Part shown: piece after piece, positions 24,094-58,999 of the stretch
How positions within the stretch are numbered: the first letter of the stretch is position 1
How the letters are laid out: every line of letters begins with the position of its first letter
Assembly: GCA_964619725.1 (NCBI GenBank)
Contig: CAZUFC010000004.1
Coordinates: 64,001-128,000 of the forward strand
Direction of reading: 5' to 3'
Length of the DNA: 64,000 bases
From: an uncultured bacterium
GTDB taxonomy: Bacteria; CSSED10-310; CAZUFC01
Position numbers and translations under genes: made by a program
Notes under the pieces: generated by a model
Databases searched by the model: none
Told to the model about the DNA's origin: nothing
Seen by the model: the letters and a program-made list of their open reading frames with translations, nothing else

Positions 24094-25559
24094 TGAGAGA
24101 TTTACCTGCAAACAACTGCCATAAATCAACTCATTCGGAATTTCTAAAACGTTACTATTCCAAAGTGATGGTATTGTTGCAGGTGATAATTGATTTTTCA
24201 GTATTTTTCATTTCTTTCTTTCTGGGCTATCATTTTTATCATCTCTTCGGCCTTTCTATAGGATTGGGGCAGGGTCCCCAACCTCTATCGCTTTATTTAA
24301 AATTATCCCTGATCGGCGCGTTTATCTTTCTGTTTATCTTCGAAAGATTCGGATTATACACTCTTCAATCCAGCATAATGAACATGGAGGAGATAAAGCG
24401 AATAATCAAGGCTGTGATAGTAGGAGCCATGCTTCTTTTCACGGTTCAGTTTTATTACCGCGACTGGACTTACTCTCGATTGATAATTTCTTACTCGCTG
24501 ATTTTCCTGACGATCCTGACGATTGCCGAAAGAGTGATCATATACAAATTGCAGCAGAAATCTTATGTGAAAGGGCGAGGCATACACAGGGTTCTTATTT
24601 ACGGCGCGGGAGAAATCGGACAGAGTTTAATGCGACGTTTGTATCAATCGCCTAAACTGGGAATGAAGGCGATCGGATTCATTGATGACGATCCTTCGAA
24701 GAAGAATATGGTCGTCAACGGCATGAAGGGAAGCCCTGAGACGAGTTTGAAAGTTCTGGGCGATTATGATGATCTGTGCAGGATAATTCGCGATCATGAA
24801 ATCGGCGAAGTTCTGATAGCAATGCCCTCAGCGTCGCCGAAAAAAATATATCAGATAATAAAAGTGTGTTCTGATCAGAAAGTGAAATTCAGTTTTGTAC
24901 CTAACCTTTTTGATCTCATGATTCAAAATGTGCAATTTGAAGAAATCGACGGAATACCGGTCCTTCGTTTAAAGGAAAGTCATACGAGTTACCTTTACAG
25001 AATCCTTAAGCGTACTTTCGATATTGTGTTTTCATGCACCATGCTGCTCCTGTTTTTGCCTTTTTTTCCCATTGTGGCGTATCTAATTGAGAAGGATTCG
25101 GAAGGTCCGATTTTCTTCAGACAAAAGCGTGTGGGAAAGGACGGAAAAATTTTCAACATCTACAAGCTGAGGACCATGAGATACGATTCGCCGAAATACA
25201 TGAAGACTCCTGAAGACCCGAATGATCCCCGCATAACAAGGATAGGCCGTTTTCTGAGGAGATTCAGCATTGATGAAATCCCTCAATTCATCAACGTATT
25301 GAAAGGGGATATGAGCGTGGTGGGACCAAGGCCGGAAATGCCCTTTGTCGTTGAATCTTATAACGCTGCCCAGATGCAGCGACTGAAAGTGCGTCCGGGC
25401 ATTACAGGAATCTGGCAGATAAGCGCAGATCGGGCTTCACCGATACACGAAAATATCGATTATGACACTTATTACGCGGAAAACCAGTCCCTGCTGCTGG
25501 ATTTCATCATAATCGTGTATACGATCGTATCAGCCATTCGCGGCATTGGAGCGGTTTGA
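24093..25559 (+). CDS. Undecaprenyl-phosphate hexose-1-phosphate transferase (WcaJ/WbaP family)
   Basis: Four N-terminal TM helices, GAGEIG domain, KRTFDI, KLRTM, DEIPQFINVLKGDMSVVGPRP; GTG start overlaps the upstream stop. Confidence 0.92.
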   Translation: MRDLPANNCHKSTHSEFLKRYYSKVMVLLQVIIDFSVFFISFFLGYHFYHLFGLSIGLGQGPQPLSLYLKLSLIGAFIFLFIFERFGLYTLQSSIMNMEEIKRIIKAVIVGAMLLFTVQFYYRDWTYSRLIISYSLIFLTILTIAERVIIYKLQQKSYVKGRGIHRVLIYGAGEIGQSLMRRLYQSPKLGMKAIGFIDDDPSKKNMVVNGMKGSPETSLKVLGDYDDLCRIIRDHEIGEVLIAMPSASPKKIYQIIKVCSDQKVKFSFVPNLFDLMIQNVQFEEIDGIPVLRLKESHTSYLYRILKRTFDIVFSCTMLLLFLPFFPIVAYLIEKDSEGPIFFRQKRVGKDGKIFNIYKLRTMRYDSPKYMKTPEDPNDPRITRIGRFLRRFSIDEIPQFINVLKGDMSVVGPRPEMPFVVESYNAAQMQRLKVRPGITGIWQISADRASPIHENIDYDTYYAENQSLLLDFIIIVYTIVSAIRGIGAV

Positions 25560-25633
25560 TACTAAAAAAGTTCTCGCTTGAATTAAACTTGTCGAACATT
25601 CAACGGCAAAGAAAAAACGACGAAAGTATTGCA

Positions 25634-26137
25634 ATGGCAGTAAATCAACATTTAACAACAATAAAAACGGATTCGCCGGCCCATACTATAGACCTGGGTC
25701 GATTCATCGGTTCGAAACTCGACGCCGGAGATCTGATCGCTTTATTCGGTGATCTGGGCAGCGGGAAGACATGCCTGATCCGGGGAATTTGTTATGGATT
25801 GGAAATAAGTGATGAGGAACATTTTTCGAGTCCCAGTTTTACTTTAATGAACAGATACGAAGGGCGTTTACCTATCTATCATTTTGACTTCTATCGACTT
25901 GCAGACGCGTCGGAAGTTTACGATACGGGTATAGAAGATTTCTTCGACGGTGAAGGAGTCGTACTCATAGAGTGGGCGGATCGATGTCTTGAAATGCTGC
26001 CTGAAGAACGCCTGGAAATATCTATTGAATTTGGTTCCTCGGATGATAGCGAAACAAGAATCTTCAGATTAAATGTTAAACACGAATCCCACGCTCCAAT
26101 AATAAGGGAATTGAGAGATGTTTATTCTGGGAATTGA
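25634..26137 (+). CDS. tsaE: t6A biosynthesis ATPase TsaE
   Basis: GDLGSGKT, SPSFTL, YHFDFYRL, IEWA. Confidence 0.95.
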   Translation: MAVNQHLTTIKTDSPAHTIDLGRFIGSKLDAGDLIALFGDLGSGKTCLIRGICYGLEISDEEHFSSPSFTLMNRYEGRLPIYHFDFYRLADASEVYDTGIEDFFDGEGVVLIEWADRCLEMLPEERLEISIEFGSSDDSETRIFRLNVKHESHAPIIRELRDVYSGN

Positions 26138-27101
26138 AACCTCTTGCGACGATACCTCGGCTGCGGTCGTAGAAGACGGCCGGATAATAAAATCAAACGT
26201 CATCTCGAATCAGACGCTTTTTCACAAAGAATACGGCGGCATAGTGCCTGAAATAGCATCAAGAAAACATATAGAGAACATATTGCCTGTCGTATATGCC
26301 GCTTTGAAGGATGCAAAAGTCAGAGCGGAAGATTTATCAGCAGTCGCTGTTACCTTTAAACCAGGATTGATAGGGTCTTTGATCGTGGGAGTCGCTGCTG
26401 CAAAATCCCTCTCCTATGCCTGGAAATTGCCCTTGATAGGCATTAATCATCTTGAAGCTCACTTGTATGCCAATTTTTTCGAGAAACTCAAGTATCCCGA
26501 ACAGCACCTGGCTTTGCTGGTTTCAGGAGGCCACACCATGTTGGTCCGAATAAATGATCAGGGGCAGTTCAGTATTGTGGGAGGAACGGTTGATGATGCT
26601 GCAGGAGAGGCTTTCGATAAGGCCGCAAAATTGCTTGGATTAGGATTTCCAGGCGGACCAATAATAGAATCGAAGGCAGCTAAAGGTGACCCGGAAAAAA
26701 TAGTATTTCCTCAACCAATGCGCGATAGCGGCGATTTCAACTTCAGTTTCAGCGGATTGAAAACAGCTCTGCGGAATTACCTTTTGAGGAATCCTGATTA
26801 CGATTTGGTCGATGTCTGTGCAGGCTTTCAGAAAAGCGTTGTTGAAATATTAACCTTTAAAACTTTTAGAGCCGTTCGGGACCTTCATTTCAAAACAGCA
26901 GCCATCGCAGGCGGAGTGGCAGCTAACGGCGCTCTGCGGTCAGCATTTGAAAGAGAGGGAAAAATACGGGAATGCAGAGTAGTTTATCCGTCTCCAAAAC
27001 TTTGCACGGATAATGCCGCAATGGTAGCCGGGCTGGCGTATCATAAACTTGCGGAAGGAATACGACATGATATGACCCTGAACGCTTATCCGTCATTTTA
27101 A
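26118..27101 (+). CDS. tsaD: tRNA N6-threonylcarbamoyltransferase TsaD
   Basis: LGIETSCDDT, GGIVPEIASRKH, HLEAH, SGGHT, GEAFDK, FSFSGLKT, TDNAAM. Confidence 0.97.
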   Translation: MFILGIETSCDDTSAAVVEDGRIIKSNVISNQTLFHKEYGGIVPEIASRKHIENILPVVYAALKDAKVRAEDLSAVAVTFKPGLIGSLIVGVAAAKSLSYAWKLPLIGINHLEAHLYANFFEKLKYPEQHLALLVSGGHTMLVRINDQGQFSIVGGTVDDAAGEAFDKAAKLLGLGFPGGPIIESKAAKGDPEKIVFPQPMRDSGDFNFSFSGLKTALRNYLLRNPDYDLVDVCAGFQKSVVEILTFKTFRAVRDLHFKTAAIAGGVAANGALRSAFEREGKIRECRVVYPSPKLCTDNAAMVAGLAYHKLAEGIRHDMTLNAYPSF

Positions 27102-27141: not shown

Positions 27142-29169
27142 ATGAAGATTATATTAAAATTGATGATTTTCTTTTCGCTAATTCTTTTCTATTCCGTATC
27201 CTCCTTTATTTCATTTGCTGAGGGCGTCTCATCATATCTGCCGGATGATCTTTACAAAATATCGGAGCTTTCTCAGGGAAAATCGAAAATTCGCGCAGGA
27301 CAGGTTTCAAGTTTTGACCGCACGGGAGGAAATGATGATGGTTTCAGCGGGAAATATTCTTTTCTTCGAAGAGAAGGCGGAAAGTTGGTTTTAGCTGATC
27401 TGGAAGGTCCCGGCTGCATCACCAGAATCTGGACGCCCACATTACTGGATAGAAACATCGAATTTTATTTTAACGAAGCTGAAGAGGCCGCTTTAATCAT
27501 TCCATTCAGAAAACTGTTCGACGGTTCGTTTTTTCCTTTCATCTCTCCATCAGCGGAATCAGCATTGGGAGGTTACGTTTCTTATGTACCGATTCCGTTC
27601 AGCGAATCCTGCAAGGTTGCAATCGACAGCGAAAAAATGAATTTCTATCAGATAACGTATCATCAGTATGACGAACAACCCTTAGAATCATTTCCGTCGA
27701 TTCCCGACGAAGAATACAGGAAGCATCATCAGATGTTTGAACTGAAAACTCTTTCTGCGATGAAAGGTGAATTCAGGCACGCTCGATCTGAAACGAGAGA
27801 GATTCCTCAAATGCTGCTGGCCCCGGGTCAGAAAGCGACATTGTGGGAATGCCACGGAGCTTATAAGATATTGAATATTGAACTGGAGTCGTCTGATTAC
27901 GACGGCGGGGTATTGCGAGCTGTGATTTTGCGTATATTCTGGGACGGTTCGCCTTTGCCCGCAGTGGAAGTCCCGCTGGGTGACTTCTTCGGACAAGCTT
28001 TCGGCGAATCGGTTATTCAATCATATGTTATTTCTTCAAAGCCCGGGTTCCGATGTTCTTTTCCCATGCCTTTTAAAAAGAAGGCCGTTTTTGAGTTGGA
28101 TTACGAACAGAATTATCATGATCAGTTCGACAAGTTACTGGTCCTGTCAGGTGAGGTAGCCGTTCAACCGATAAATCCTGAACAGATGAAAAATGAGAAA
28201 TATTTCCATGCCGTCTGGAGGAGAGAGAATCCCACGACTAAGCATTTGCCTTATTCTATCCTCGATGTGGAAGGATCGGGGCATTTCGTCGGTTTTCAAC
28301 TGCAGTGCACGGGGAAAATACCGGGATTATTGGAATATTTCGAGGGCGACGAACGTATTTTCGTCGACGGAGAATTAGCCATTCATGGAACTGGATCGGA
28401 AGATTGCTTTAACGGAGGTTGGTATAATATCACCGGGCGTTGGGATCATCAGCAGAATTTGCCTTTGTACGGCTGCACACGCTTCGATCTCAGCGCTTCG
28501 CAAACCGGCGCCTATAGATGGTATATAGGCGATTTCGTCCCCTTCTCCAGGAGCTTTCGCATGGAAATCGAACACGGTCCCGTTAACAACAACATCTTAA
28601 CGGATTATTGCTCAACCGCATACTATTACGAAGCTTCTCCTGCTGGTAACGGCAAAAAAATACCTGGCCTGGATGAAAGATCAATCATGGCGCCTGATTT
28701 GTTGGTTTTCGAAGGAGAACAATTGCCGATACCCCAATGGTCTTTCACAGGGCCCCCCGTCGACAAACCCGCGGTCGACAAAGAAAAATGGAGCCAGGCA
28801 AGATATTTGCGATTAAAAGGCGACGGCAAATGCCCCTTAGGTTATGAATACATTATGACCGTCGTTGAAATCGAAAAGGAAGACGATTATGAAGTCCAAA
28901 TATTTTATGCTGCAGGACAGGAATTCGGTTCCGTGCAGCTCTTCCTCGACGGATTTGCCTTCGGCCCCAAAATAAACTGTTTCTCTGAAAAATTTCAAAG
29001 AAAAGGTCCCATTTCTTTGGGCATCAAACATTTTCAAAAAGGTAATCACATTTTTGAATTCAGAATCTTTTCAGAGAATAAAGAAATCGGGAAACATCAC
29101 TTCGGTTTGGATAAAATAGAATTCAAACGTCTGCGCCACAGATTGCTGAACGATCCTAAGAAAAAATAA
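27142..29169 (+). CDS. Secreted DUF2961 / GH172-like glycoside hydrolase with a C-terminal beta-sandwich (CBM-like) domain
   Basis: Signal peptide, SSFDRTGGNDD, GPGCITRIW, PLGDFFG, FPMPF, EGDE...GTGSEDCFNGGW, IEHG. Confidence 0.82.
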   Translation: MKIILKLMIFFSLILFYSVSSFISFAEGVSSYLPDDLYKISELSQGKSKIRAGQVSSFDRTGGNDDGFSGKYSFLRREGGKLVLADLEGPGCITRIWTPTLLDRNIEFYFNEAEEAALIIPFRKLFDGSFFPFISPSAESALGGYVSYVPIPFSESCKVAIDSEKMNFYQITYHQYDEQPLESFPSIPDEEYRKHHQMFELKTLSAMKGEFRHARSETREIPQMLLAPGQKATLWECHGAYKILNIELESSDYDGGVLRAVILRIFWDGSPLPAVEVPLGDFFGQAFGESVIQSYVISSKPGFRCSFPMPFKKKAVFELDYEQNYHDQFDKLLVLSGEVAVQPINPEQMKNEKYFHAVWRRENPTTKHLPYSILDVEGSGHFVGFQLQCTGKIPGLLEYFEGDERIFVDGELAIHGTGSEDCFNGGWYNITGRWDHQQNLPLYGCTRFDLSASQTGAYRWYIGDFVPFSRSFRMEIEHGPVNNNILTDYCSTAYYYEASPAGNGKKIPGLDERSIMAPDLLVFEGEQLPIPQWSFTGPPVDKPAVDKEKWSQARYLRLKGDGKCPLGYEYIMTVVEIEKEDDYEVQIFYAAGQEFGSVQLFLDGFAFGPKINCFSEKFQRKGPISLGIKHFQKGNHIFEFRIFSENKEIGKHHFGLDKIEFKRLRHRLLNDPKKK

Positions 29170-29223: not shown

Positions 29224-30903
29224 TTAATCCGTTTTTCTGTGATAGACCGCAAAATCTTCTATGGCGGTAATTCGTTTATAATCAGACTCCAAATAATCAT
29301 AAAGCTCCGGGAAATTTCGTAATTGCACTTCAGAGGTGAACAGTTCCAAATCATTCCTATCTCTCTTCAACACCAGAAAAAGCTCAGGCTTGTTCTTTTT
29401 TAATTCCTCGATGCATATCCGTCTTCGCTTTGTTTTGTTCCATTCGATTACCGAAAGGGGATAATCAAAAATGAACCGGGAGGCAGGTCGGCGGTCGCTT
29501 AGAGCATAAACAAGAGGTTCATATCCCCAGATGAAAATTTTTTCTGAATCCTGGACTTCCTTTTTGATATAATCAGCTACGAGCACATCAGCATAATAAT
29601 TAAAATCATTGAGTCCCCACCTGAATCGAGAATAAAAAATTTTTCGACTCAGTTCTCCTTTATAGTAGTCCCAATATCCCTGAGATTTGTAATATCTTGA
29701 ATGAAATGCCGTATAAGGAACCAAAGAGGCCGCAAATAAAGCGCAGAATAAATATTTCAGAAAAGACGAATAAGGTCTGCGGGTTAATTGCATTATCCAG
29801 TTTTGTCCGAGCGATGCCATTATCGCCAGGGGTAAAACGATATTCTGGTAGTGATACAGCCAGAATTTTCTTTGAACGAATACGCTGCAAAGAACAGCGA
29901 TCCACCATAACAGGGGGATTGCTGCGTATCGTATGTCAACGGAACGCCTTCCGGCAACTAAACCGATGATTCCCAGTAAAGACAAAATGTAGAGAGGAAA
30001 CAAATAGGGGAAAGCAAACAGTATTCTCGGCCATAGTGGGAGCGTACCCATAGAAATTGACCCGGCGCTTGAATGATAAAGATTGAAAATTATCGTCGCT
30101 TCGACGAATTCGGACAGAATGCCGGCAAAATAAAGTAATGGAAAAAAGAGCATCCAAAGAAAGGCACAACCAAAACAAAACCAGAAGAGGGATTTTAACT
30201 TGTTTGTTTTTCCATGAATTGCTGCTGCAGCCATACAAACCGGAACGAGAAGGACGGCGGTGGTTTTTGCCGTAAGGGCCAGGCTGATGCATAATCCTGC
30301 CAGAAATTCATTGAAGTAAATCCAATGGCCTTTTTCAACCCTGCGGGTTCTTCTTAAAATCAACAATAAGCTGCATAACATGAAAAAGTCGATTAGAATT
30401 TCAGCTTGCAGTCGATTCCAGTAGCCTCCGAAGGGTAGCCTGTTGAAAAATATCAGATAAAGGAAAAGAGCGAATAAAGAGAAAAAATGTTTCTTTATCG
30501 GACGCTTTTCGAAATCTTCGGCCGGATAAATCAGTCGCAGCAAGACGCCGCTCAACTTGTACAGCAAAATTCCATTGAGCAGAACGATGATTATTTCCAT
30601 TATTGTTATTCCGATAAAATCATGAAAGAACACTTGAGCGACCATGTAAACAAAATACACGCACGGAGGTTTATGATCCCAAATATCCTGGTAAGGTTTT
30701 TCACCATTAAGCATGCCTTCTGCGACCACCCAGAAAACTCCCTGATCTCTTCCAGGAGGTTCAATTAAATCCGGCATACGAATCAATACTCCGAACAACA
30801 GAATGACCATGAATATTAAATTCAGTTTCAGATGTGATTTTTGGTTCATATCAGGATGTTCTGTTCTAATGGAATCATTCCGAATCCCTGCTGATCGGCG
30901 CAT
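29224..30903 (-). CDS. Polytopic GT-C fold glycosyltransferase (ArnT/GT39-like)
   Basis: RDQG..W, PYQDIWDHKPP motif, many TM helices, C-terminal IFIWG periplasmic domain; start may be 30849. Confidence 0.8.
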   Translation of the reverse strand: MRRSAGIRNDSIRTEHPDMNQKSHLKLNLIFMVILLFGVLIRMPDLIEPPGRDQGVFWVVAEGMLNGEKPYQDIWDHKPPCVYFVYMVAQVFFHDFIGITIMEIIIVLLNGILLYKLSGVLLRLIYPAEDFEKRPIKKHFFSLFALFLYLIFFNRLPFGGYWNRLQAEILIDFFMLCSLLLILRRTRRVEKGHWIYFNEFLAGLCISLALTAKTTAVLLVPVCMAAAAIHGKTNKLKSLFWFCFGCAFLWMLFFPLLYFAGILSEFVEATIIFNLYHSSAGSISMGTLPLWPRILFAFPYLFPLYILSLLGIIGLVAGRRSVDIRYAAIPLLWWIAVLCSVFVQRKFWLYHYQNIVLPLAIMASLGQNWIMQLTRRPYSSFLKYLFCALFAASLVPYTAFHSRYYKSQGYWDYYKGELSRKIFYSRFRWGLNDFNYYADVLVADYIKKEVQDSEKIFIWGYEPLVYALSDRRPASRFIFDYPLSVIEWNKTKRRRICIEELKKNKPELFLVLKRDRNDLELFTSEVQLRNFPELYDYLESDYKRITAIEDFAVYHRKTD

Positions 30904-31185
30904 TCCCTCATTGGCACAAATTCATAATAACAGTCCGGCTGTTTTTTTCAATCAAAAATGCTGTCATATTTTTCATGAGTTTCTATTGACAAACGGTGAG
31001 TTTTTCCAAAGCCGGCGTCAGCTTACTGTTTTTCTCCATTACCCTCTGAGTAATATGCCTTCCCGGCAAATTTCGGTTTTAAACTATAACTTTTTTCGAT
31101 ATATTAAAGGGGGAAACGCTGAATCGCTTTGTGGACGTATGCATTTCAGAAAAGTTTAAACTATCGCAACCAAAGGAGAAGCAAA

Positions 31186-31923
31186 TTGCTGATTTTAGCT
31201 GTCGATACGGCCACCCGTTGCAGCAGCGCAGCGCTGCTCGACGATGATCTGCCTTTAGCTGAAGAGACGGTCTTATCGGCTCACACACACTTGGCGAATT
31301 TAATGCCTTCAATAGACAGGCTTCTATCAAGAATTGACGCTGATATTAAAGATATTGATTTGTTCGCTGCTGCAGCAGGACCCGGCTCATTTACGGGGTT
31401 GAGAGTAGGAGTAACGACAATAAAAACACTGTCCTTCAGTCTAAAGAAACCTGCTTTGGGAATATCCACGCTGGAGGGATTAGCATGTAATGTTCGCGAG
31501 CACGCGGGATTTATAGCGCCGATGATCGATGCAAGAAAAAAAGAAATATTTGCAGCTCTTTATCAATCGAACGGCAGAGAATTACGCCTGTCTGCAGGTC
31601 CTTTCGTAGAACCTGTTGAGAAATTCATCGCTCGAATCGAAAAACCGGCTCTTCTCGTCGGCAATGCAATAGATGCATATAAGCGCCGAATAGCCGATTG
31701 CGAATCCGATGCATTGACCTTAAGCGACAGAGATCGCAGCATACATCACGCTTCCAGTATAGGGCGCCTGGCATTTAAACGTTTTGAAGCAAAAAAAGAG
31801 GAAACTGTTTTTGAATGGAGTATGGAATATTCAAGTAATGTAAATCCCGTATATGTCAGACGGCCGGAAGCTGAAATCAATAGACTGAAAAGAAAAGAAA
31901 AAAATGAAAAAAACTCTTTATAA
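31186..31923 (+). CDS. tsaB: t6A biosynthesis protein TsaB
   Basis: ILAVDTAT, GPGSFTGLRVG, DARKKE, PVYVR; TTG start after an AAGGAG RBS. Confidence 0.95.
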   Translation: MLILAVDTATRCSSAALLDDDLPLAEETVLSAHTHLANLMPSIDRLLSRIDADIKDIDLFAAAAGPGSFTGLRVGVTTIKTLSFSLKKPALGISTLEGLACNVREHAGFIAPMIDARKKEIFAALYQSNGRELRLSAGPFVEPVEKFIARIEKPALLVGNAIDAYKRRIADCESDALTLSDRDRSIHHASSIGRLAFKRFEAKKEETVFEWSMEYSSNVNPVYVRRPEAEINRLKRKEKNEKNSL

Positions 31924-32914
31924 CGGTTTTCTGCAACAATACGCGGTAAAAAGAAATCTGGCTTTCAACAAATCAAGGCTATCATCTTTTGGAAAACTAA
32001 AAGGAACTGTTGCTGGAGCTAACGTTGAAATTACATGGACCGATCGTCTGCCGGGTTATGCTGGAAAGCAAGGCAGAAAATCTAAAAAGGAATATTTTAC
32101 ACGCGTCGCCGTCTATTTCTTCGGCGGATTAGCGAAAAAAAAATTGGAATCATCTTCTTTTCTTCACGTGACAAATGATCCCGAAAGTTCATCTTACGTT
32201 ATTGAATATAATCCACGCTATTTTCATAAAGAAAACGAACAACTGGAGACGCTCCTTAACGAATTTGAATGGTCTGATCATATTATCGACATCAGCCTGT
32301 TTCCGGCGACTGAGAAAACCCGAAGTCAAGTCATCATTCATCATGAAGGACTGGTGCAAAGATCGGAGCTGCTGGACAAATTGTTGAAAATCGCTCTTTA
32401 CATAACATCGGTCATGACGGGCGAACATTTTTCAGAATACAGTTTTGAATTGATCGAGCCGGTTTTCAAGCCTGTGAAGAAGCGGCGATCAGCGGCTGCA
32501 TTCATCATCATTCTGGTATGCCTTATCGCTTTAGGGGCTTTTGTTTTCTACAACAAAGAAAAAATAAAGGAATCTGGTTTTTATGAGAATCTGCGACAAA
32601 TAAACTTGCCTTTCGCCGGTTTTCAGTCAAGGCCTGAACAGGCGCGGCAAGATTTACAAGAGTTGGTCAATTTATTGAACGAGTATTTTCTGAATAATCA
32701 GAATGTTTATCCTGACTCATTGGCGACAATGATTCCTGAATACATTGAGGAAATCCCGAAAGACCCGTGGGGAGCTGTTTACAATTACAGGAAATTCAAC
32801 GAGACCGAATACGTTTTGTATACATTCGGAAAAGACGGCAGGCGAGGCGGAGAAGATGCGGCCCGGGACATAATAGTGGACAGCGGAATAATCATGGAAG
32901 AAACGAACCAGTAA
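31904..32914 (+). CDS. Membrane protein with a C-terminal GspG (type II secretion pseudopilin)-like domain
   Basis: Single central TM helix; C-terminal YP.SL..IPKDPWG..Y.Y...G.DG..GGE...DI motif. Confidence 0.7.
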   Translation: MKKTLYNGFLQQYAVKRNLAFNKSRLSSFGKLKGTVAGANVEITWTDRLPGYAGKQGRKSKKEYFTRVAVYFFGGLAKKKLESSSFLHVTNDPESSSYVIEYNPRYFHKENEQLETLLNEFEWSDHIIDISLFPATEKTRSQVIIHHEGLVQRSELLDKLLKIALYITSVMTGEHFSEYSFELIEPVFKPVKKRRSAAAFIIILVCLIALGAFVFYNKEKIKESGFYENLRQINLPFAGFQSRPEQARQDLQELVNLLNEYFLNNQNVYPDSLATMIPEYIEEIPKDPWGAVYNYRKFNETEYVLYTFGKDGRRGGEDAARDIIVDSGIIMEETNQ

Positions 32915-32977: not shown

Positions 32978-34228
32978 TTACAGCCCATATTGAGCGATTA
33001 TTTCTTTTTTGTCTTTGCCTAGAATATCGTATTTCTTGCCGACTTTGATGAATGCTTCAATGGCTTTGTCGAGGTGCTCACGGGTATGAACGGCTGATAT
33101 TTGAGTCCTGATTCTAGCTTGACCTTTGGGAACGACGGGAAAAGCGAAGCCGATGACGTAAATGCCTTCGTAATAAAGGTCTCGGGCCATATCCTGAGCG
33201 AGTTTAGCATTGTAAAGCATAATAGGAGCGATGGGGTGAATTCCCTCTTTTATATCGAATCCGGCTTCAGTCATTTTTTTCCGGAAATACATCGTATTTT
33301 CTTCCAGAATATCTCTTCTTTCAGTAGTTTTGGTTATAATGTCCATAACGGCATTAGCGGCTGAAACGACGACAGAGGGCATTGAATTGGAAAAGAGATA
33401 GGGTCGCGCTTTTTGTCTGCATAGTTCGACGATTTCCTTCCGGCCGCTGACGCATCCTCCGGCCGCACCGCCTAATGCTTTGCCGAGCGTAGTGGTTATG
33501 GCATCTATCCTGCCTAAAACTCCGAAATGTTCATGCGTTCCGCGCCCCTTCTTACCGACGAAACCTGTGGCGTGTGAATCGTCAACAAGTACCATGGCGC
33601 CGTATTTTTCTGCCAGATCGCACATTTCGTCCAATTTCGCCAGGTCACCGTCCATAGAAAAAACGCCGTCTGTTATGATCATGCTGAATCGACAATCTTC
33701 TTTGGCTTCTTTTAATTTCTTTTCCAGATGTCGCATATTGGAATGCTTATACACATAGTGCTGCGCCTTACACAATCGCATTCCATCTACTATGCTGGCG
33801 TGAACCAGCTTGTCTGCAATCATGGCATCTTCAGGTCCCAGAACGGCTTCAAACACGCCTGCGTTGGCATCCATGCACGAGGGAAATAAAATTGTGTCTT
33901 CAGTGCACAAAAAGTCCGTCAGTTTCTTTTCTAAGGATCGATGAATGTCCTGCGTCCCGCAAATGAAACGAACCGAAGACATTCCATATCCTCTTTCGTC
34001 CAATCCTTCATGGGCCGCTTTAACAACATCGGGATGACTGGATAATCCTAAATAATTATTCGCACAGAAGTTTATAACAGTTTGCTTCGGAGCTCCCTTG
34101 GGGAATTCCACCTCGATGTCTGCTCCTTGAGGTGAATGGATGAAGCGTTCTTCTTTAAATAGCCCCTGTTCTTTTATGCTGTCCAGTTCTCCTTGAAATG
34201 TGTTCCTGATAGTATCTGGATAAGCCAT
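32978..34228 (-). CDS. kbl: Glycine C-acetyltransferase (2-amino-3-ketobutyrate CoA ligase)
   Basis: NFCANNYLGL, SSVRFICGTQ, HASIVDG, TDGVFSMDG, DDSHATG, TLGKALGG, RPYLFSNS. Confidence 0.92.
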   Translation of the reverse strand: MAYPDTIRNTFQGELDSIKEQGLFKEERFIHSPQGADIEVEFPKGAPKQTVINFCANNYLGLSSHPDVVKAAHEGLDERGYGMSSVRFICGTQDIHRSLEKKLTDFLCTEDTILFPSCMDANAGVFEAVLGPEDAMIADKLVHASIVDGMRLCKAQHYVYKHSNMRHLEKKLKEAKEDCRFSMIITDGVFSMDGDLAKLDEMCDLAEKYGAMVLVDDSHATGFVGKKGRGTHEHFGVLGRIDAITTTLGKALGGAAGGCVSGRKEIVELCRQKARPYLFSNSMPSVVVSAANAVMDIITKTTERRDILEENTMYFRKKMTEAGFDIKEGIHPIAPIMLYNAKLAQDMARDLYYEGIYVIGFAFPVVPKGQARIRTQISAVHTREHLDKAIEAFIKVGKKYDILGKDKKEIIAQYGL

Positions 34229-34282
34229 CTTTCCTCCTTCATAGATTTCATTCAGGAAATTTCGCTAAAAAAATCATTAAAC

Positions 34283-34552
34283 TTATTTTAGTTGATCTTC
34301 AGGTACGTACTCCTTTAAAAGCTCTATAATGCTGTTGACGGAGTCGAAAGCGTCGGGGGTCGCTTTAGCATCAGGTATCTGGATTTTGAATTTTTTCTCA
34401 AGATACGTTTTCAAAGAAACCATGGAGAAGGAGTCGACGATTCCGCTTGAAATAAGAGGCGTATCCGCCTCGATATCCATTTCATCATCATCATCTTCTT
34501 CTTCAAGATATTCATCCTCAATGTATTCAATTATTTCATCTTTTAAGGCCAT
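34283..34552 (-). CDS. Stand-alone acyl/aminoacyl carrier protein
   Basis: 89 aa, very acidic, LISSGIVDSFSMV phosphopantetheine motif (Ser41). Confidence 0.9.
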   Translation of the reverse strand: MALKDEIIEYIEDEYLEEEDDDDEMDIEADTPLISSGIVDSFSMVSLKTYLEKKFKIQIPDAKATPDAFDSVNSIIELLKEYVPEDQLK

Positions 34553-34574
34553 AATTCACGTCTCCTTTCGTAAT

Positions 34575-36275
34575 TTATTCTTCTTCAAGTGTTGAAGTGT
34601 CCCCGATGGGTTCACCAGTTTCTTTTGCCCTTAGAAGCCGCCGCATAATTTTCCCGCTTCTGGTCTTCGGAAGAGAAGGAACGAATTCTATTTCCTGGGG
34701 CATAGCCAATGGAGAGAGCCGTTTTCGAATATGATTCATGATCGAAAGTTCCATATCATCGTCGTGTTCGAATTCCGGTTTAAGCGCGATGAAAGCCTTG
34801 ACTACTTCCATATTTATCGGATCGGGTTTTCCGATGGCGGCGGATTCGGCGACAGCCGGATGCTCCAGCAACGCTGATTCAATCTCAAAAGGACTGACCA
34901 GATGACCGCCGGTATTTATAACGTCGTCATCACGGCCGACGAACCAGAAATAACCCTCCTCGTCGATTCGGCTTCTGTCGCCGGTTATGTACCAACCGTT
35001 TTTAAATTTTTCTTTGTACACGTATTCATTTTTCCAATAGTTGCGAAACATGGAGGGCCATTTCGGTTTGAGAGCCAGTAATCCCAACTGACCGGCCTTT
35101 TCCACAGGCTCATACGTTTTAGGCTTTAAAACGGCAGCCTCTATTCCGGGAAACGGTTTACCCATCGAACCCGGCTTAATCTTCATGCCCGGATAATTCG
35201 CAATCATGATGCTGCCGGTTTCTGTCTGCCACCATGTGTCATGGAAAGGCAGACCGTATGCTTCCTCAGACCATACTACGGCCTCGGGATTTAACGGTTC
35301 TCCCACGCTGCACAAGTGTCTCAACGATGACAGATCGTATTTTTTGATTATCTCTTTCCCTTCACGCATGAGCAGGCGGATAGCCGTCGGAGCGGAATAC
35401 CAGACTGTTATTCTATGCTTCTGGATGGCCTCATACCACCTTGAAGGAAAAAAACCGCTGTCGAGGACATACTGAGTAATTCCAAGGCTCCAGGGTCCGA
35501 TTATTCCGTATGAGGTTCCTGTTACCCAGCCCGGGTCTGCTGTACACCAATAAATGTCGTTTTCATCCAGATCGAGAACCCATTTCGTCGACAGATATTG
35601 AGAAAAAATTGAACTGTGAACGTGCAAAGCCCCTTTCGGCTGTCCCGTTGTTCCCGATGTGTAATGAAGGACAGAAGGCGTTTCTTCATCCGTTTCGCAT
35701 ATATCGAAATGTTCCTTCCTGGGCGCAGCTTCCACTGAAAAGGGAATTTCTTTTTCCTTTAAGGTTTTTTCGCCGGCATCGATAACGATTATATGCTTTA
35801 AGTCAGGCAGCTTCTCTTTTATCGGTCTGACCTTCCTCAACAATTTTCGCATCGTAATGATTACATTGGCCCCTGAATTTTCTATCCTCGTCAATAATGA
35901 TTCCTCACCAAAGGCCGAAAATAGCGGAACCACAACACAACCGTTCTTTAATATTCCTAAAAAGGAAATATAAAGCTCCGGGACCCTGTCAAGATATAGA
36001 CATACTCGCTCGCCTTTGTTTACGCCGAGTTCTTTAAGCAAATTCGCGAATGCGTTGCTGTAATATCGCAGGTCGTTGAAGGTGTATTCTTTTGACTCTC
36101 CCTTGAAGTTTTCCCACAATAATGCCTTTTTTTCTCCGAGTCCGAGCTCGCATATTCTGTCGCTGCAATAATACCCTATATTGATGGATTCGCCTGGTTT
36201 ATAATTCAGTTCGCGCTTGGCAATGTCCCAAGAGAAGTTTTTTCTGGCTTCTTCATAATTACCGATGTTGTTCAT
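34575..36275 (-). CDS. acsA: AMP-forming acetate--CoA ligase family enzyme
   Basis: YTSGTTGQPKG, TADPGWVTG, SVGEP, DTWWQTETG, LPKTRSGKIMRR. Confidence 0.9.
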   Translation of the reverse strand: MNNIGNYEEARKNFSWDIAKRELNYKPGESINIGYYCSDRICELGLGEKKALLWENFKGESKEYTFNDLRYYSNAFANLLKELGVNKGERVCLYLDRVPELYISFLGILKNGCVVVPLFSAFGEESLLTRIENSGANVIITMRKLLRKVRPIKEKLPDLKHIIVIDAGEKTLKEKEIPFSVEAAPRKEHFDICETDEETPSVLHYTSGTTGQPKGALHVHSSIFSQYLSTKWVLDLDENDIYWCTADPGWVTGTSYGIIGPWSLGITQYVLDSGFFPSRWYEAIQKHRITVWYSAPTAIRLLMREGKEIIKKYDLSSLRHLCSVGEPLNPEAVVWSEEAYGLPFHDTWWQTETGSIMIANYPGMKIKPGSMGKPFPGIEAAVLKPKTYEPVEKAGQLGLLALKPKWPSMFRNYWKNEYVYKEKFKNGWYITGDRSRIDEEGYFWFVGRDDDVINTGGHLVSPFEIESALLEHPAVAESAAIGKPDPINMEVVKAFIALKPEFEHDDDMELSIMNHIRKRLSPLAMPQEIEFVPSLPKTRSGKIMRRLLRAKETGEPIGDTSTLEEE

Positions 36276-36339
36276 TTATCAAGACTCCTTTTTGATTTGA
36301 AGCTGAAGATAGGTTCAGATCGCGTTTGGAGCGGTTTCT

Positions 36340-37398
36340 TTATTCTTCACCCGGCATGGGATAAAAAACTATTTTAGATGAGCTTCTTGTTGGGTCCGCA
36401 GCAAGCTCAAGGCCTTCTATCGCTTTTGAAAACGGCATCGTATGAGTTATTACGGGGGTCGGATCCACAAGTTGATTGTTTAACAATCGGCTGATCTGTA
36501 TCCAGGTCTCAAACATCTTACGACCGTTAATGCCGATTATATTGGCTCCCTTGAAGATTATATTATTCGCCAAGTCAAACTTGATCGGCTCAGGAGGTAT
36601 GCCGAACGCAGTGTAAGACCCTCCGCGTCTCAACATCGCAAAGGCGTCCGCAACTGCTTTCTCGTTGCCCGCCATGTCCAATACTACATCTACTCCGCCG
36701 TTTGTGCTCTCAAGTATTCGTTCAATGTAATCCTTCTCTTTCATTACATTATATGTGTAATCAGCTCCCATCTTCCTGCAAATGTCGAGATTGAAATCCT
36801 GCATACCAATATTGTAAATCTTCGCTGCTCCCACAGCACGAGATATCCCGACGGCAAAAGCCGCAATCGGTCCGTCGCCCACTACGCCTACTCGCTGCAA
36901 AGATACACGACTTTCCATAACTGTGTATGTCGCATTGCCGAACGGTTCCTGAATGGATGCTATCACTGGAGAAAGTGATGCAGCGTTTTTCCAGCAGCAT
37001 ACCTCCGGAACGGTTATGTATTCGGCAAAACTTCCATTCCTGTCTACACCCAGAATCTCGACGTTTGAACATATATGCATCTGTCCCGTTAAGCATTGAA
37101 GACAATTTTGGCAGGGAATATGGGTTTCACCCGAAACATAATCACCTATCTTGATGTTTCTGACGCCCGAACCAATCTCCACCACTTCGCCTGCGAATTC
37201 ATGTCCGAGAATTTGCGGGGTTTTAATGCGACTTTGAGACCATTTATCCCAAGTGTATATGTGAACGTCGGTTCCGCATACAGATGTCGCTTTTATTTTA
37301 ATCAAAGCTTCATTTTCACCCGGAATGGGTCGATCAACCTCAACCATCTCAGCTCCATAATCGGGCTTTAGCTTCACTATCGCTTTCATCTTTTTCAA
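36340..37398 (-). CDS. tdh: L-threonine 3-dehydrogenase-like zinc dehydrogenase
   Basis: CGTDVHIY.WD.W, GHEFAG, ETHIPC..C..C...HIC, EPFGNA, GINGRKMFETW. Confidence 0.88.
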   Translation of the reverse strand: MKKMKAIVKLKPDYGAEMVEVDRPIPGENEALIKIKATSVCGTDVHIYTWDKWSQSRIKTPQILGHEFAGEVVEIGSGVRNIKIGDYVSGETHIPCQNCLQCLTGQMHICSNVEILGVDRNGSFAEYITVPEVCCWKNAASLSPVIASIQEPFGNATYTVMESRVSLQRVGVVGDGPIAAFAVGISRAVGAAKIYNIGMQDFNLDICRKMGADYTYNVMKEKDYIERILESTNGGVDVVLDMAGNEKAVADAFAMLRRGGSYTAFGIPPEPIKFDLANNIIFKGANIIGINGRKMFETWIQISRLLNNQLVDPTPVITHTMPFSKAIEGLELAADPTRSSSKIVFYPMPGEE

Positions 37399-38077: not shown

Positions 38078-38395
38078 TTATTTCTTTCCGAAATACTCCT
38101 GAGTTCGTGACTTATCGAAGACGATGCGGCCGTCACGCTCAATTAAATCCACTATCGCCATGATTGCACAGTCACAAGGAGACCCCTCCGTTAATGAGGT
38201 TTGTCTCGCTGACGAACCGGAGGCGAACAATATCAATTCTCCCTCTCCGGCGCCTACAGCATCGACTGCCACCAGAACCGTTTCTGATGGTTCAAAATTA
38301 AGGTCAACCGGCTGGATAATCAACAGCTTCCGGCCGCCTATTCTTTCTTCTTTTTGCGTCGCTACGACATTTCCTATTACTATGGCAAATTTCAT
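38078..38395 (-). CDS. BMC vertex protein (EutN/CcmL, BMC-P)
   Basis: VIGNVVATQK...AVDAVGAGEGE...GSSAR..DCAIMAIVD. Confidence 0.93.
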   Translation of the reverse strand: MKFAIVIGNVVATQKEERIGGRKLLIIQPVDLNFEPSETVLVAVDAVGAGEGELILFASGSSARQTSLTEGSPCDCAIMAIVDLIERDGRIVFDKSRTQEYFGKK

Positions 38396-40338: not shown

Positions 40339-41010
40339 CTACTTCGCATGGAATTGATTTGTTTTACCTCCAATAGCGGATTCAATGTCGGTTTTGGTCA
40401 CAGGACCGTTTCTCAATATCAAGGGCGGTCGACGTGTGATATCCAGGACAGTGGAAGAGCGGCCGAGACTGCACTTACCGGCATCGAAAATTTGTATCCC
40501 CTTTTCGATTGCAAATGAGTTAGTCAAATCGGCGGCGCTTTTTGCCGGTTCCTCACCTGAGAGATTAGCGCTGGTGACTACAAGAGGAAAACCGGTTTCT
40601 TTGAGAAGATAAAGGCAGAACAGTTCATCTGGAATTCTAATTCCTAATCGTTTTTCCGGACCCGTCAGCCATTCAGGAACGTTATTCGCTGCCCTGCATA
40701 TCATCGTCAGAGGTCCTGGCCAGAATTCTTTCATAATTTTTTCTGCAAAATTTGGGAGGGCAGACGTTAATCTTCTCGCTTCAGCGATGTCGTGCACTTG
40801 CAGGGGAAGCTTGTTCGTAATTTTCCTGTTTTTAATTTTATAAATTTTCATGACAGCAGCTTTATTTCGGGCATCGGCCGCTAACCCGTAAACCGTTTCT
40901 GTCGGTATGACGATGAGCATTCCTCTTTCCAGCAGGCTTGCAGCAAACCTGATGATATTTCTCTCCGGTTTTTTCCGGTCGACTTTTATTATATCTGGAG
41001 GGTGATTCAT
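40339..41010 (-). CDS. tsaC: L-threonylcarbamoyladenylate synthase (TsaC/Sua5 catalytic domain)
   Basis: PTETVYGL, KIKNR, FWPGPLT, GIRIP, TSANLSG, SSTVLD. Confidence 0.93.
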   Translation of the reverse strand: MNHPPDIIKVDRKKPERNIIRFAASLLERGMLIVIPTETVYGLAADARNKAAVMKIYKIKNRKITNKLPLQVHDIAEARRLTSALPNFAEKIMKEFWPGPLTMICRAANNVPEWLTGPEKRLGIRIPDELFCLYLLKETGFPLVVTSANLSGEEPAKSAADLTNSFAIEKGIQIFDAGKCSLGRSSTVLDITRRPPLILRNGPVTKTDIESAIGGKTNQFHAK

Positions 41011-41200
41011 TTTTGGGAATTCTGAGTAATTATTAGACTTCATCAAGCTTCGTTGAAGCTTGAGTTTGCGTTTGTGATTTTAACAAGAAACGATTGATGC
41101 GGCAAGAATTCAAATCGTTTTTACGATTTTTCCCGAGAAATGACTTAAGGCCTATATTGCTGCTTGCATGTTTCAATTCAAAATAATATATTCGACAACT

Positions 41201-44242: not shown

Positions 44243-46021
44243 ATGAAACGAACAGATTATTGCGGTCATTTAAGAGGAACAGACGAAGGACGTTCTGTAT
44301 TTTTAACGGGTTGGGTAAGAAAAAGCAGAATTCTGGGTAATTTGATTTTCATAGATTTATGGGACCGTGAAGGTATAGTCCAGATAGTATTCGATCCCGG
44401 CGTATCCGCGGAATTGCACGAAAAGGCCGGGTCTTTGAGGAGGGAATACGTCATCGGCGTAGCGGGGAAGGTGCGGAAGAGACCCGAGGGTATGACGAAT
44501 CCTGAGATGAAAACGGGCGAAATTGAAGTCCTGGTCGATGAGATGGAAATATATTCGATTTCATTAACACCGCCTTTTCATCTTTCGGATAAAACGGAAG
44601 CCTCTGAAGAATTACGTTTAAAGTATCGGTTTTTAGATTTGCGAAGAAAGAAAATGATGAAGAATCTGATTCTTCGACACAACATATCCAATTCTGTAAG
44701 AAACTGTTTGCATGAACAGGGATTCATTGAAGTTGAAACTCCTTTTTTCACCAGGTCGACGCCGGAAGGAGCCCGGGATTTTCTGGTGCCGAACAGAATA
44801 CATAAGGGATACTTTTATGCCTTAGCGCAATCTCCTCAATTGTATAAGCAACTGATGATGGTGGCGGGAATAGATCGTTACTATCAGATTGCAAGGTGTT
44901 TTCGGGATGAAGATTTACGCGGCGATCGGCAACCTGAGTTTACGCAGATTGATCTGGAGATGTCCTTTATAACTGAAGAGGATATTTTTGAAGTGGTGGA
45001 AAAGATGATAAGCGATATATCGAAAACAGCGCTTGAGAATGAAATCTCGATTCCTTTACCTCGAATGACATACAAAGAGGCGATGTCCAGATATGGAACC
45101 GACAAACCGGATATTCGATACGGTATGGAAATTTTCGAAGCGAATGATGTTTTCGGGAATTCCGAATTTAAACCTTTCAAACGGACGCTCTCTCAAGAAA
45201 GTGGATTGATTGCCGGTATAAACGTAAAGAGTGCTGCAGACGAATATTCCCGAAAAAAACTGGATGAATTGACCGAACTGGCTAAAAAGCAGGAAGCGCC
45301 CGGACTTTTTTGGATAAAATTCATGGCTGACGGTTCAGTAAAATCTTCCTTCGCCAAATACGCCGGACAAACGGAGATGGATTCTCTGAAGAAGACTGCC
45401 GAAGCGGAGCCGGGAGATTTGGTTTTACTGATAGCCGACGATATCTTCAGAACCAGAAAAACGCTTGGAGCGCTGAGGATTGAGTTGGCGCGTCGCAGAA
45501 AAATGATTCCTAAAGGCGAATACCGTTTTCTATGGATAACTGAATTTCCGCTGTTTTCCCCGGAATCTACCGGAGACAGGCTGGATTCGGAACATCACCC
45601 TTTTACAGGTTTTATCGGAGATACTCCCGATTCTTTAAAAAAAGATCCTCTGAGCATTATTTCCCGATCGTATGATTTGGTTTTAAACGGAGTAGAATTG
45701 GGAAGCGGAAGCATAAGGATTTTCAGGAAAGACTCTCAGCAAGCGATTTTCGATCTCCTTGGAATCAGCAATGAGGAAGCCAGGTCGAAATTCGGATTTC
45801 TGCTGGATGCTTTTGATTATGGGCCGCCCCCGCACGGCGGGATCGCCTTGGGACTGGACCGTCTTATAATGATTTTCGCCGGGATGGATAGCATCAGAGA
45901 CGTTACCGCTTTTCCCAAAACGCTTAATATGACCTGTCCTTTAACCAATTCCCCGGCGCCGGTCAGCGAAGAGCAACTGAAAGAATTAGGATTATCCCTG
46001 GATGTTGATGTCCCGCAATAG
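44243..46021 (+). CDS. aspS: Aspartate--tRNA ligase
   Basis: RTDYCG, STPEGARDFLVP, QSPQLYKQ, CFRDEDLR.DRQPEFTQ, PPHGGIALGLDR. Confidence 0.97.
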   Translation: MKRTDYCGHLRGTDEGRSVFLTGWVRKSRILGNLIFIDLWDREGIVQIVFDPGVSAELHEKAGSLRREYVIGVAGKVRKRPEGMTNPEMKTGEIEVLVDEMEIYSISLTPPFHLSDKTEASEELRLKYRFLDLRRKKMMKNLILRHNISNSVRNCLHEQGFIEVETPFFTRSTPEGARDFLVPNRIHKGYFYALAQSPQLYKQLMMVAGIDRYYQIARCFRDEDLRGDRQPEFTQIDLEMSFITEEDIFEVVEKMISDISKTALENEISIPLPRMTYKEAMSRYGTDKPDIRYGMEIFEANDVFGNSEFKPFKRTLSQESGLIAGINVKSAADEYSRKKLDELTELAKKQEAPGLFWIKFMADGSVKSSFAKYAGQTEMDSLKKTAEAEPGDLVLLIADDIFRTRKTLGALRIELARRRKMIPKGEYRFLWITEFPLFSPESTGDRLDSEHHPFTGFIGDTPDSLKKDPLSIISRSYDLVLNGVELGSGSIRIFRKDSQQAIFDLLGISNEEARSKFGFLLDAFDYGPPPHGGIALGLDRLIMIFAGMDSIRDVTAFPKTLNMTCPLTNSPAPVSEEQLKELGLSLDVDVPQ

Positions 46022-55257: not shown

Positions 55258-55842
55258 TCAGATGAAATCTCTAAAGAGTTCCGGACGAGGACCAGGAATA
55301 ACTACTTTATTGACGAGGACGCCTCTTGCGCCGGCAAGTTCAGCCCCGGCGTTTATTGAAGACTGCACGGCGGCCACATCTCCGGTCAGCAACAAATACC
55401 CTTTTCCGCCGATAGCCATGCAAACGTGAACCCGGAAAAGTTTAACCATGGCAGCTTTTGCTGCAGCATCTGCGCTTTCGATGATGGAGGCGGCCGAGAA
55501 GGTTTCAATGATACCCAGAGCCTTCATATCTTCCAGTTCCAGAAGTGAAGTACAGGTGATGGCCGGAAAAATATCCGGATGAACATTCGGAATAACAAGG
55601 CTTTCAATGATCTCAGCTCCTCCGGTTTGAACGCCTGCTCTGACTGAAGACTCTACCGGACCCACCATTCCGCCCACAATAACGATATATTTTCCGGAAC
55701 AAACCGTACGGGCTGTAATAAGCGTAACTTCAGCGGCTTTAAGCATGGCATCTTCTGATTCATAACCGGCAGCAATACTTGATAATTCAATCATACCGAT
55801 CGCTGTAAGCGAATATCCCTTCGTTTCACTCTCATTTCTCAA
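55258..55842 (-). CDS. pduT: Tandem-domain BMC shell protein (BMC-T, PduT-like)
   Basis: AIGMIELSSIAAG..DAMLKAA, TVCSGKY (Fe-S ligand Cys position), second domain ALGIIETFS..ADAAAKAA..IGGKGY. Confidence 0.88.
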   Translation of the reverse strand: MRNESETKGYSLTAIGMIELSSIAAGYESEDAMLKAAEVTLITARTVCSGKYIVIVGGMVGPVESSVRAGVQTGGAEIIESLVIPNVHPDIFPAITCTSLLELEDMKALGIIETFSAASIIESADAAAKAAMVKLFRVHVCMAIGGKGYLLLTGDVAAVQSSINAGAELAGARGVLVNKVVIPGPRPELFRDFI

Positions 55843-57181: not shown

Positions 57182-57205
57182 TACTTTCAGTATTTCCCGC
57201 TCAAA

Positions 57206-58900: not shown

Positions 58901-58999
58901 CAAAATTCTCCTTTAAACAGTTTTTGAAAATCGGCATCATTTTCCAAATATAATTTCCTTTTTTGTTCGGATAATCAGCAAAAGCTGGATTATCGCGTC

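Follow-up and report, generated by a model that had tools for sequence, protein, structure and literature searches.

A conserved ligase, carrier protein and Kbl paralogue unit predicted to run a carrier-protein variant of the Kbl reaction

L-Threonine 3-dehydrogenase (Tdh; EC 1.1.1.103) and glycine C-acetyltransferase, also known as 2-amino-3-ketobutyrate ligase (Kbl; EC 2.3.1.29), are encoded together as the Escherichia coli kbl–tdh pair, use coenzyme A (CoA) as the thiol acceptor and are represented among solved structures by the Kbl entries 1fc4, 7v58 and 3tqx. Acetate is activated by, among others, acetyl-CoA synthetases (Acs) of the AcsA type (NF003313/PRK04319; solved relative 9g79). In the two-gene systems DltA/DltC, PltF/PltL and PigI/PigG, a ligase loads amino acids onto a partner carrier protein. 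In Caulobacter and other Rhodobacteria, the AasR/AcpR/serine palmitoyltransferase (SPT) system is reported to combine a dedicated ligase that acylates only its own carrier with an oxoamine synthase that prefers the acyl-carrier (PMC9386255). Here we report an operon of four genes in a 64,000-nucleotide (nt) stretch of DNA, hereafter the window, from an uncultured bacterium (GTDB lineage Bacteria; CSSED10-310; CAZUFC01; assembly GCA_964619725.1, contig CAZUFC010000004.1, positions 64,001 to 128,000), in which the genes for an AcsA-type ligase and a stand-alone carrier protein lie between tdh and the gene for a Kbl paralogue, which we call KblA. The ligase, carrier and KblA genes form a conserved unit that recurs in many phyla, and this unit probably performs the Kbl reaction on a private carrier protein. 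The four genes, in window coordinates, are as follows.

36340..37398, minus strand: tdh, Zn-dependent L-threonine 3-dehydrogenase, 352 amino acids (aa); ADH_N and ADH_zinc_N (Pfam), NF003808, TIGR00692
34575..36275, minus strand: AcsA-type AMP-forming acetate-activating ligase, proposed acetate:carrier-protein ligase, 566 aa; NF003313
34283..34552, minus strand: stand-alone phosphopantetheine carrier protein, 89 aa; PF00550
32978..34228, minus strand: KblA, carrier-linked glycine C-acetyltransferase (2-amino-3-ketobutyrate ligase) paralogue, 416 aa; TIGR01822

The four open reading frames (ORFs) are co-directional on the minus strand at 32978-37398, in the order tdh, ligase, carrier and KblA, with gaps of 64, 22 and 54 nt. 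The ORF list and curated family models confirm the four closely spaced genes described in the original prediction, and the motifs quoted there are all in place: GIVDSF at carrier residues 37-42, and GWVT and DTWWQTE at ligase residues 249-252 and 346-352. The tdh ORF starts at a TTG codon (37398), and an in-frame ATG is found at 37389. As in the E. coli pair, tdh and kblA belong to one operon and encode clear homologues of the known enzymes; unlike that pair, they are separated by the ligase and carrier genes, and the proposed thiol acceptor is a protein rather than CoA. The module also resembles AasR/AcpR/SPT, in that a dedicated ANL ligase, a specialised carrier and an α-oxoamine synthase are adjacent and co-occur. 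The suggested parallel with the logic of bacterial sphingolipid synthesis is supported, with several differences: the unit handled would not be long-chain but a C2 unit in an acetate pocket, glycine presumably takes the place of serine as the amino acid, the ligase is an AcsA-type Acs rather than FadD-like, KblA falls outside SPT by the NCBIfam cut-offs, and no lipid genes lie nearby. With the Dlt, Plt and Pig systems the module shares the two-gene layout of ligase and carrier, but its ligase pocket is of the acetate type and its downstream enzyme is an α-oxoamine synthase dependent on pyridoxal phosphate (PLP).

A carrier scan over one genome per species yielded at least 595 pattern matches, of which 564 were confirmed, and the carrier gene thus occurs in at least 564 stretches of species genomes. 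Judging by record titles, the lineages include Ignavibacteria, Aminicenantes, WOR-3, Zixibacteria, Calditrichota (Calditrichaceae), KSB1, Riflebacteria and Chrysiogenales, among others; one locus with the module (L058) comes from a metagenome-assembled genome labelled Ignavibacterium album. The best 80 matches were kept as loci (L007-L086) and scanned with degenerate motifs that permitted no mismatch, so that the counts are lower bounds. The ligase motif GWVTGTSYG is present upstream of the carrier in at least 62 of these loci (9 of the 18 misses have less than 1.1 kilobases (kb) of upstream DNA), and the KblA-specific motif LVHAS[IL][IV]DG follows the carrier in at least 70. Where the ORF lists of 12 loci were inspected, a ligase 60-72% identical to that of the window was found in all 12, directly upstream of the carrier in 11 and 2.7 kb away in L059, and a KblA 69-79% identical came after the carrier in 11. 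In the exception, L046, the ORF of matching length (415 aa; L046:3869-5116) is LpxG-like and not a Kbl.

The co-occurrence of the trio is strict among 30 sampled relatives of the host, none of them closer than the same phylum (genomes designated by G). The carrier gene is present in 13 of the 30; a KblA-type gene lies beside it in all 13 (64-74% identical, aligned to the last residues), and a module-type ligase gene lies beside it in 12, with the remaining one on another short contig. By contrast, none of the 17 carrier-less relatives has a KblA-type gene, their best Kbl matches being 42-59% identical and ending before the tail described below, and only one of them (G019) has a ligase more than 43% identical, at 57%. 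Because the trio is adjacent in loci of many phyla and co-occurs perfectly in the 30 relatives, the arrangement is far beyond chance, and the conserved unit is the trio of ligase, carrier and KblA, with tdh as an occasional fourth gene.

The trio also stands out in its degree of conservation. The highest identities to relatives in other phyla are 86% for the carrier, 79% for KblA and 72% for the ligase. The aspartyl-tRNA synthetase (AspRS) of the same genome, at 44243-46021 on the plus strand, finds relatives of mixed phyla that are at best 56% identical among 5.8 billion clustered proteins, and the host lineage is therefore deep. The contrast with AspRS points to strong selection on the trio or to its frequent transfer. 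Metallo-β-lactamase-fold genes beside the module in three same-phylum relatives (L113:3654-4526, L114:8305-9360 and L011:4229-5059) are only 29-38% identical to one another and were thus not counted as module members. In a WOR-3 chromosome, a flavoenzyme of the DAO/ThiO/sarcosine-oxidase family is encoded directly after KblA (L040:9645-10775), and could act on glycine or aminoacetone.

KblA is a Kbl by family criteria, with 617.9 bits on TIGR01822 (cut-off 493) and 600.2 on NF005394 (cut-off 460), and aligns with solved Kbl enzymes at E values of about 1e-142 to 1e-145. It retains the PLP-lysine region TLGKA and the SHA(T/V)GF region, and its K250, within TTTLGKA, is invariant in 14 of 14 sequences and matches in alignment the lysine that 1fc4, 7v58 and 3tqx have in TGTLGKA. 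KblA nevertheless differs from canonical Kbl by clade-specific features. All 12 KblA proteins compared end in a tail of about 13 aa and read LVHASIVDG where canonical Kbl has LNHASIIDG; both features are missing from the two adjacent canonical Kbl proteins and from all three solved ones, and further changes relative to canonical and solved Kbl convert ILY(S/T)SCF to ILFPSCM, SHAVGF to SHATGF and GGYT to GGCV. By these sequence features KblA is a distinct Kbl paralogue, forming its own clade with substitutions in the active-site region. The two types often stand side by side: the canonical motif LNHASIIDG occurs in the flanks of 33 of the 80 loci; a second Kbl follows KblA in L007 and L086 (58% and 61% identical to the window KblA, with about 615 bits on the same model); and in G003, G008, G012, G017 and G029 a second Kbl, 53-61% identical, is encoded no more than about 2.5 kb from the module, that of G024 being on another contig.

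The ligase likewise belongs to its family by score, reaching 796.3 bits on NF003313, the PRK04319 type (cut-off 729), with the acetate-pocket residues present. Its best solved relative is the acetyl-CoA synthetase 9g79 (572 aa; E 8.5e-173). At the positions of V310/T311, V386 and W414 in Salmonella Acs (2p2f), which we take to be the acetate pocket, closed by the tryptophan, the ligase has V251/T252, V324 and W349. All four positions are invariant in 13 of 13 module ligases, upholding the earlier statement that the enzyme keeps the pocket residues for short acids, and the pocket is accordingly predicted to be specific for a C2 acid, acetate. K542 occupies the position of the catalytic and acetylated lysine, K609. 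The module ligases therefore share with AcsA-type acetyl-CoA synthetases not only the pocket for acetate but also the catalytic lysine and the arginine positions for the CoA phosphate; they differ in adjoining a carrier gene, in being fused with the carrier in one lineage and in being 60-72% identical to one another across phyla.

The carrier belongs to PF00550 (25.1 bits, cut-off 20.8), and its attachment serine is conserved. Ser41, within GIVDSF, is the proposed phosphopantetheine site; it is invariant in 22 of 22 sequences and aligns with the serine of GILDSLSM (6cxt_A), GILNSMN (PltL) and GVIDSLG (2my5). Among solved structures, it comes closest to PltL, PigG, DltC and aminoacyl carrier proteins, which are charged by stand-alone adenylating enzymes, and not to the acyl carrier proteins (ACPs) of fatty-acid synthesis. 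The best NCBIfam match, the ornithine-lipid ACP family (NF052616, ACP_for_OlsHI), gave 51.7 bits against a cut-off of 130, and the carrier was not assigned to it. The carrier has 4069 relatives at E≤1e-3; 21 picked members across phyla are 63-80% identical to it, and the closest relatives reach 86%. A profile search of a representative library is in keeping with a tight family, the 4630 proteins found at E≤1e-3 shrinking to 164 at 1e-10 and to 7 at 1e-30. In the protein atlas, the carrier falls only in unnamed 'putative ACP' clusters.

Two further lines of evidence bind the carrier to the ligase and to phosphopantetheinylation. A search for longer carrier-containing proteins revealed a 659-aa in-frame ligase–carrier fusion (P0130) with a linker of about 5 residues. 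Its cluster has three full-length members from independent assemblies (P0130, P0137 and P0140), one of them an NCBI Vicinamibacterales record that is annotated as a plain acetate–CoA ligase, and three further clusters fuse AMP-binding_C, the ligase C-terminal domain, to the carrier. A carrier fused to a Kbl-type domain was not found in the same search. An apparent 661-aa ligase–carrier fusion (P0124) proved to be a frameshift read-through artefact, and an AcpS–carrier fusion (P0125) is weak, being present on one contig only. An AcpS-type gene is located directly upstream of the ligase in four loci (L086, G003, G009 and G017); a small ORF first considered as AcpS (L014:5774-6175) is PilZ. The natural ligase–carrier fusion, the AcpS gene in the operon of these four other loci and the strict co-occurrence indicate that the carrier is a dedicated partner of the ligase. 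The evidence supports its assignment as a real phosphopantetheine protein with predicted modification.

The dehydrogenases found beside the trio suggest what it acts on. The window Tdh scored 384.1 on NF003808 (cut-off 380) and 393.9 on TIGR00692, below the cut-off of 458.35, the next family being IolM at 189.9. The host genome has no second copy, and the protein is 62% identical to the module-adjacent Tdh of L057 and 46% identical to that of G017. A Zn-Tdh gene adjoins the module in the window, L057 and L086 and lies about 3 kb upstream of it in G017, and a relaxed Tdh motif occurs in nine further loci, which brings Zn-Tdh beside the module to at least 11 of the 80 loci; this motif scan missed two Tdh genes that the hidden Markov model (HMM) had found. 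The linkage of tdh, acsA, carrier and kbl genes proposed at the outset is thus conserved in its trio part, and the complete four-gene form is a minority. In L027, the ligase gene is preceded instead by a threonine dehydrogenase of the short-chain dehydrogenase/reductase (SDR) type (E 5e-115 to 2yy7), and an enzyme of this type, recognised by its GGTTDYA motif, has the same place in L060 and L061, for a total of 3 of 80 loci. The presence of two unrelated dehydrogenases at one position is good evidence for 2-amino-3-ketobutyrate as a compound on which the module acts. The operon also includes an acetate transporter in two cases, each from a different family: ActP after KblA in L068 and a SatP/YaaH channel in G017.

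On the basis of gene content and sequence, we consider it probable that the module runs the Kbl reaction through an acetyl-S-carrier, in one direction or the other. In the scheme that we propose, the AcsA-type ligase, whose acetate pocket is apparent at the sequence level, would adenylate acetate and transfer the acetyl group to the phosphopantetheine thiol of the carrier rather than to CoA, or in preference to it. KblA would then join the acetyl-S-carrier and glycine to give 2-amino-3-ketobutyrate and free holo-carrier, and in the host the Zn-Tdh, with reduced nicotinamide adenine dinucleotide (NADH), would reduce the product to L-threonine. A small carrier pool kept acetylated by a ligase that converts adenosine triphosphate (ATP) to adenosine monophosphate (AMP) and pyrophosphate (PPi) could push the reversible condensation, independently of the acetyl-CoA to CoA ratio. 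For the direction itself we lean modestly towards acetate consumption as the primary one, and the carrier link and the condensing direction, taken jointly, fall a little short of even chances.

Several observations tell against this scheme, some of them bearing on its direction. Tdh and Kbl form a textbook catabolic route. In the host genome, thrC has three matches over the cut-off, and ackA is present together with two ADP-forming Acs-like genes, so that the host has no need of a new route to threonine or to ATP. The expectation that carriers of the module lack thrC fails in the host, and among the relatives the pattern is not clean, with no thrC match in 5 of 13 genomes that have the module (G009, G010, G017, G024 and G029) and in 4 of 17 that do not. 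The condensing direction also leaves the canonical Kbl genes in the module flanks unexplained. AMP-forming Acs, moreover, can run backwards: the enzyme of Syntrophus aciditrophicus is reported to make ATP from acetyl-CoA, AMP and PPi (PMC4992975). The same carrier chemistry could accordingly operate in reverse, such that Tdh oxidises threonine, KblA cleaves 2-amino-3-ketobutyrate with holo-carrier to glycine and acetyl-S-carrier, and the ligase converts acetyl-carrier, AMP and PPi to acetate and ATP, saving energy in an anaerobe and leaving the CoA pool untouched. The window does encode enzymes typical of an anaerobe (PFOR and an RnfC-like protein), and the SatP channel of G017 could export acetate.

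Reverse operation, however, requires a source of the keto acid. No threonine dehydrogenase (TDH) of the Zn or SDR type was found at E≤1e-50 in 8 of the 13 module-bearing relatives (completeness 60-94%), and in module genomes that have no TDH, 2-amino-3-ketobutyrate can arise only by condensation, which favours the condensing direction. The family of the L068 ActP carries the annotation of symporters for acetate uptake, ackA and the ADP-forming Acs-like genes already serve the host in making ATP from acetyl units, and there is no obvious reason for a cleavage reaction to replace CoA. Three near-complete genomes (G017, G024 and G029; 98-100% complete) combine the module and a TDH with no thrC match, which is suggestive of the condensing direction, but the same pattern without the module appears in G025 and G030, which have TDH and Kbl and no thrC, so that absence of thrC can accompany plain threonine catabolism. 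Neither direction is forced by host gene content, and we regard the reverse operation as possible but fairly doubtful.

The remaining adverse observations bear on the carrier itself and would fit an ordinary CoA-dependent acetyl-CoA synthetase, Kbl and Tdh accompanied by a PP-binding protein that is regulatory, structural or part of an unrelated pathway. The three enzymes pass curated equivalog cut-offs for CoA-dependent functions (Tdh on NF003808 only), the ligase as an acetate–CoA ligase and KblA as well as canonical Kbl does. At the positions of R194 and R584 of Salmonella Acs, which presumably touch the 3′-phosphate of CoA, the ligase keeps R150 (at least 90% conserved) and R517 (invariant), in addition to K542 at the K609 position. 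It is also the only Acs-family gene in the host genome, where the next ANL enzyme is 26% identical to it, and in 12 of 13 module-bearing relatives, that is, in 13 of 14 module genomes, so it may simply make acetyl-CoA; and the 57%-identical ligase of G019 occurs without a carrier. AcpS is not in the window operon, although an AcpS is encoded elsewhere in the host genome. The predicted complex of two KblA chains and the carrier lends weak support, being a weak pass only: it scored 0.45 against 0.00 for the best control, with runs agreeing in at least 83% of contacts and a partner predicted local distance difference test (pLDDT) value of at least 80. Of 80 solved complexes, 58 attain the passing mark, as do 2 of 110 mismatched pairs, and passing scores of 0.60 or less comprise only 7 of those 80 solved complexes together with both passing mismatches.

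Against purely CoA-dependent enzymes stand the strict co-occurrence of the trio (13 of 13 versus 0 of 17 genomes), the in-frame ligase–carrier fusion in independent assemblies and the presence of AcpS within the operon in four loci. The substitutions and tail specific to KblA point in the same direction; a canonical Kbl beside KblA, as in many loci, would be redundant if both used CoA; and the carrier is 63-80% identical across phyla among the 21 picked members (86% for the closest) as compared with at most 56% for AspRS. While the retained arginines are compatible with CoA use, the ligase–carrier fusion argues for use of the carrier, and we judge the exclusively CoA-dependent explanation unlikely.

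Immediately upstream of tdh, three tandem genes that the original prediction does not mention encode vertex proteins of bacterial microcompartments (BMCs).

38078-38395, minus strand: EutN/CcmL (BMC-P) vertex gene, PF03319, 95.7 bits
37805-38074, minus strand: EutN/CcmL (BMC-P) vertex gene, PF03319, 84.6 bits
37512-37802, minus strand: EutN/CcmL (BMC-P) vertex gene, PF03319, 81.8 bits

The vertex genes and tdh share a strand and are separated by 113 nt, in which the minus strand shows no terminator-like site. The operon could on that account be the cargo or an accessory of a microcompartment that encloses the chemistry of threonine, aminoacetone or keto acids; aminoacetone, like 2-amino-3-ketobutyrate, is unstable or toxic. 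A 1449-nt contig of DNA run X1, the possible source sample and one of four runs of one microbial-mat study that were compared, supports the junction by spanning from tdh to the second vertex gene; in the second-best run, the tdh/vertex junction is not covered. The genome has further shell genes, among them a PduT-like one (55258-55842) and, on contig C63, a BMC-H gene. On the other side, BMC-P genes and the module are on different contigs in all six relatives that have both, and a search with the window query found no BMC-P gene at E≤1e-8 in 7 of the 13 relatives that have the module. The ligase and KblA have the same length as their orthologues at loci without adjacent shell genes and carry no added terminal peptide of the kind expected of cargo, and the other shell genes stand beside DeoC and nucleoside phosphorylase genes or beside PduS-like and ETF-QO genes, indicating a compartment for sugar phosphates or aldehydes. 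The three vertex genes have no BMC-H gene next to them. A microcompartment role is therefore highly improbable, and the vertex genes, possibly co-transcribed with tdh, are probably functionally outside the module.

The other shell genes were observed in two settings. On the minus strand at 55258-63402, the PduT-like tandem-BMC shell protein gene (55258-55842) overlaps a gene for an RnfC/PduS-like flavoprotein (55832-57181), which is followed by ETF-QO-like (57206-58903) and PFOR (59845-63402) genes; the group may represent a redox module that is attached to a shell protein of a microcompartment. On contig C63 (L116:289-2894), the only single-domain BMC-H gene of the genome stands at the contig start, and the genes after it encode an aldolase of the DeoC family and a pyrimidine nucleoside phosphorylase. 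This grouping suggests a compartment of the sugar-phosphate or nucleoside type with genes scattered over several loci.

A sphingolipid-like or aminolipid starter pathway, in which a long-chain acid on the carrier is condensed with an amino acid and reduced, would match the set of ligase, dedicated ACP, α-oxoamine synthase and reductase of AasR/AcpR/SPT logic (PMC9386255) and the ornithine-lipid ACP family as the best NCBIfam match of the carrier, but it is barely credible and was rejected, because the acetate-pocket residues are invariant with W349 closing the ligase pocket, KblA scores 322, 280.1 and 232.6 bits on three SPT models with cut-offs of 640, 500 and 670 (against 617.9 on a Kbl model with a cut-off of 493), the ornithine-lipid ACP score is far under its cut-off, and no ceramide synthase or acyltransferase gene lies beside the module in any locus annotated.

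The wider neighbourhood of the operon contains genes of other functions. The t6A tRNA-modification genes TsaE, TsaD, TsaB and TsaC/Sua5 flank it within 16 kb (25556-27101, plus strand; 31129-31923, plus strand; 40339-41046, minus strand). The t6A modification uses up threonine, and the presence of these genes around a threonine-linked operon may be coincidence. Also nearby are genes for a DUF2961 protein (27142-29169, plus strand) and a 336-aa protein with a GspG-like pseudopilin region at its C terminus only (31904-32914, plus strand), and a 559-aa ORF without a Pfam or NCBIfam match (29224-30903, minus strand). Promoter and terminator scans returned no more sites than in shuffled sequence, and Rfam at gathering thresholds gave no matches in the window and five module loci, offering no riboswitch clue.

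The module of ligase, carrier and KblA is thus real and conserved, and is predicted to be a carrier-protein variant of known Kbl chemistry; by analogy, it looks like a C2 counterpart of AasR/AcpR/SPT built from AcsA- and Kbl-type enzymes. We found no description of such a unit in the literature searched, most subscription journals lying outside it. Annotation pipelines would name the trio acetate–CoA ligase, acyl carrier protein and glycine C-acetyltransferase, and metabolic models of hundreds of uncultured species would then hold it as three unrelated housekeeping functions. If the carrier does hold acetyl, the trio would run a classic CoA reaction of central amino-acid metabolism on a carrier protein, and would be a candidate for a new connection of acetate with glycine and threonine in anaerobic sediments and mats. 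In a more far-reaching form, which we put forward as improbable at present, the joining of acetate and glycine would be ATP-driven and insulated from CoA, giving uncultured anaerobes an aspartate-independent route to threonine where a TDH is present and, where it is absent, a route of the aminoacetone/methylglyoxal type, with assimilation of C2 + C2 to C3 + CO2.

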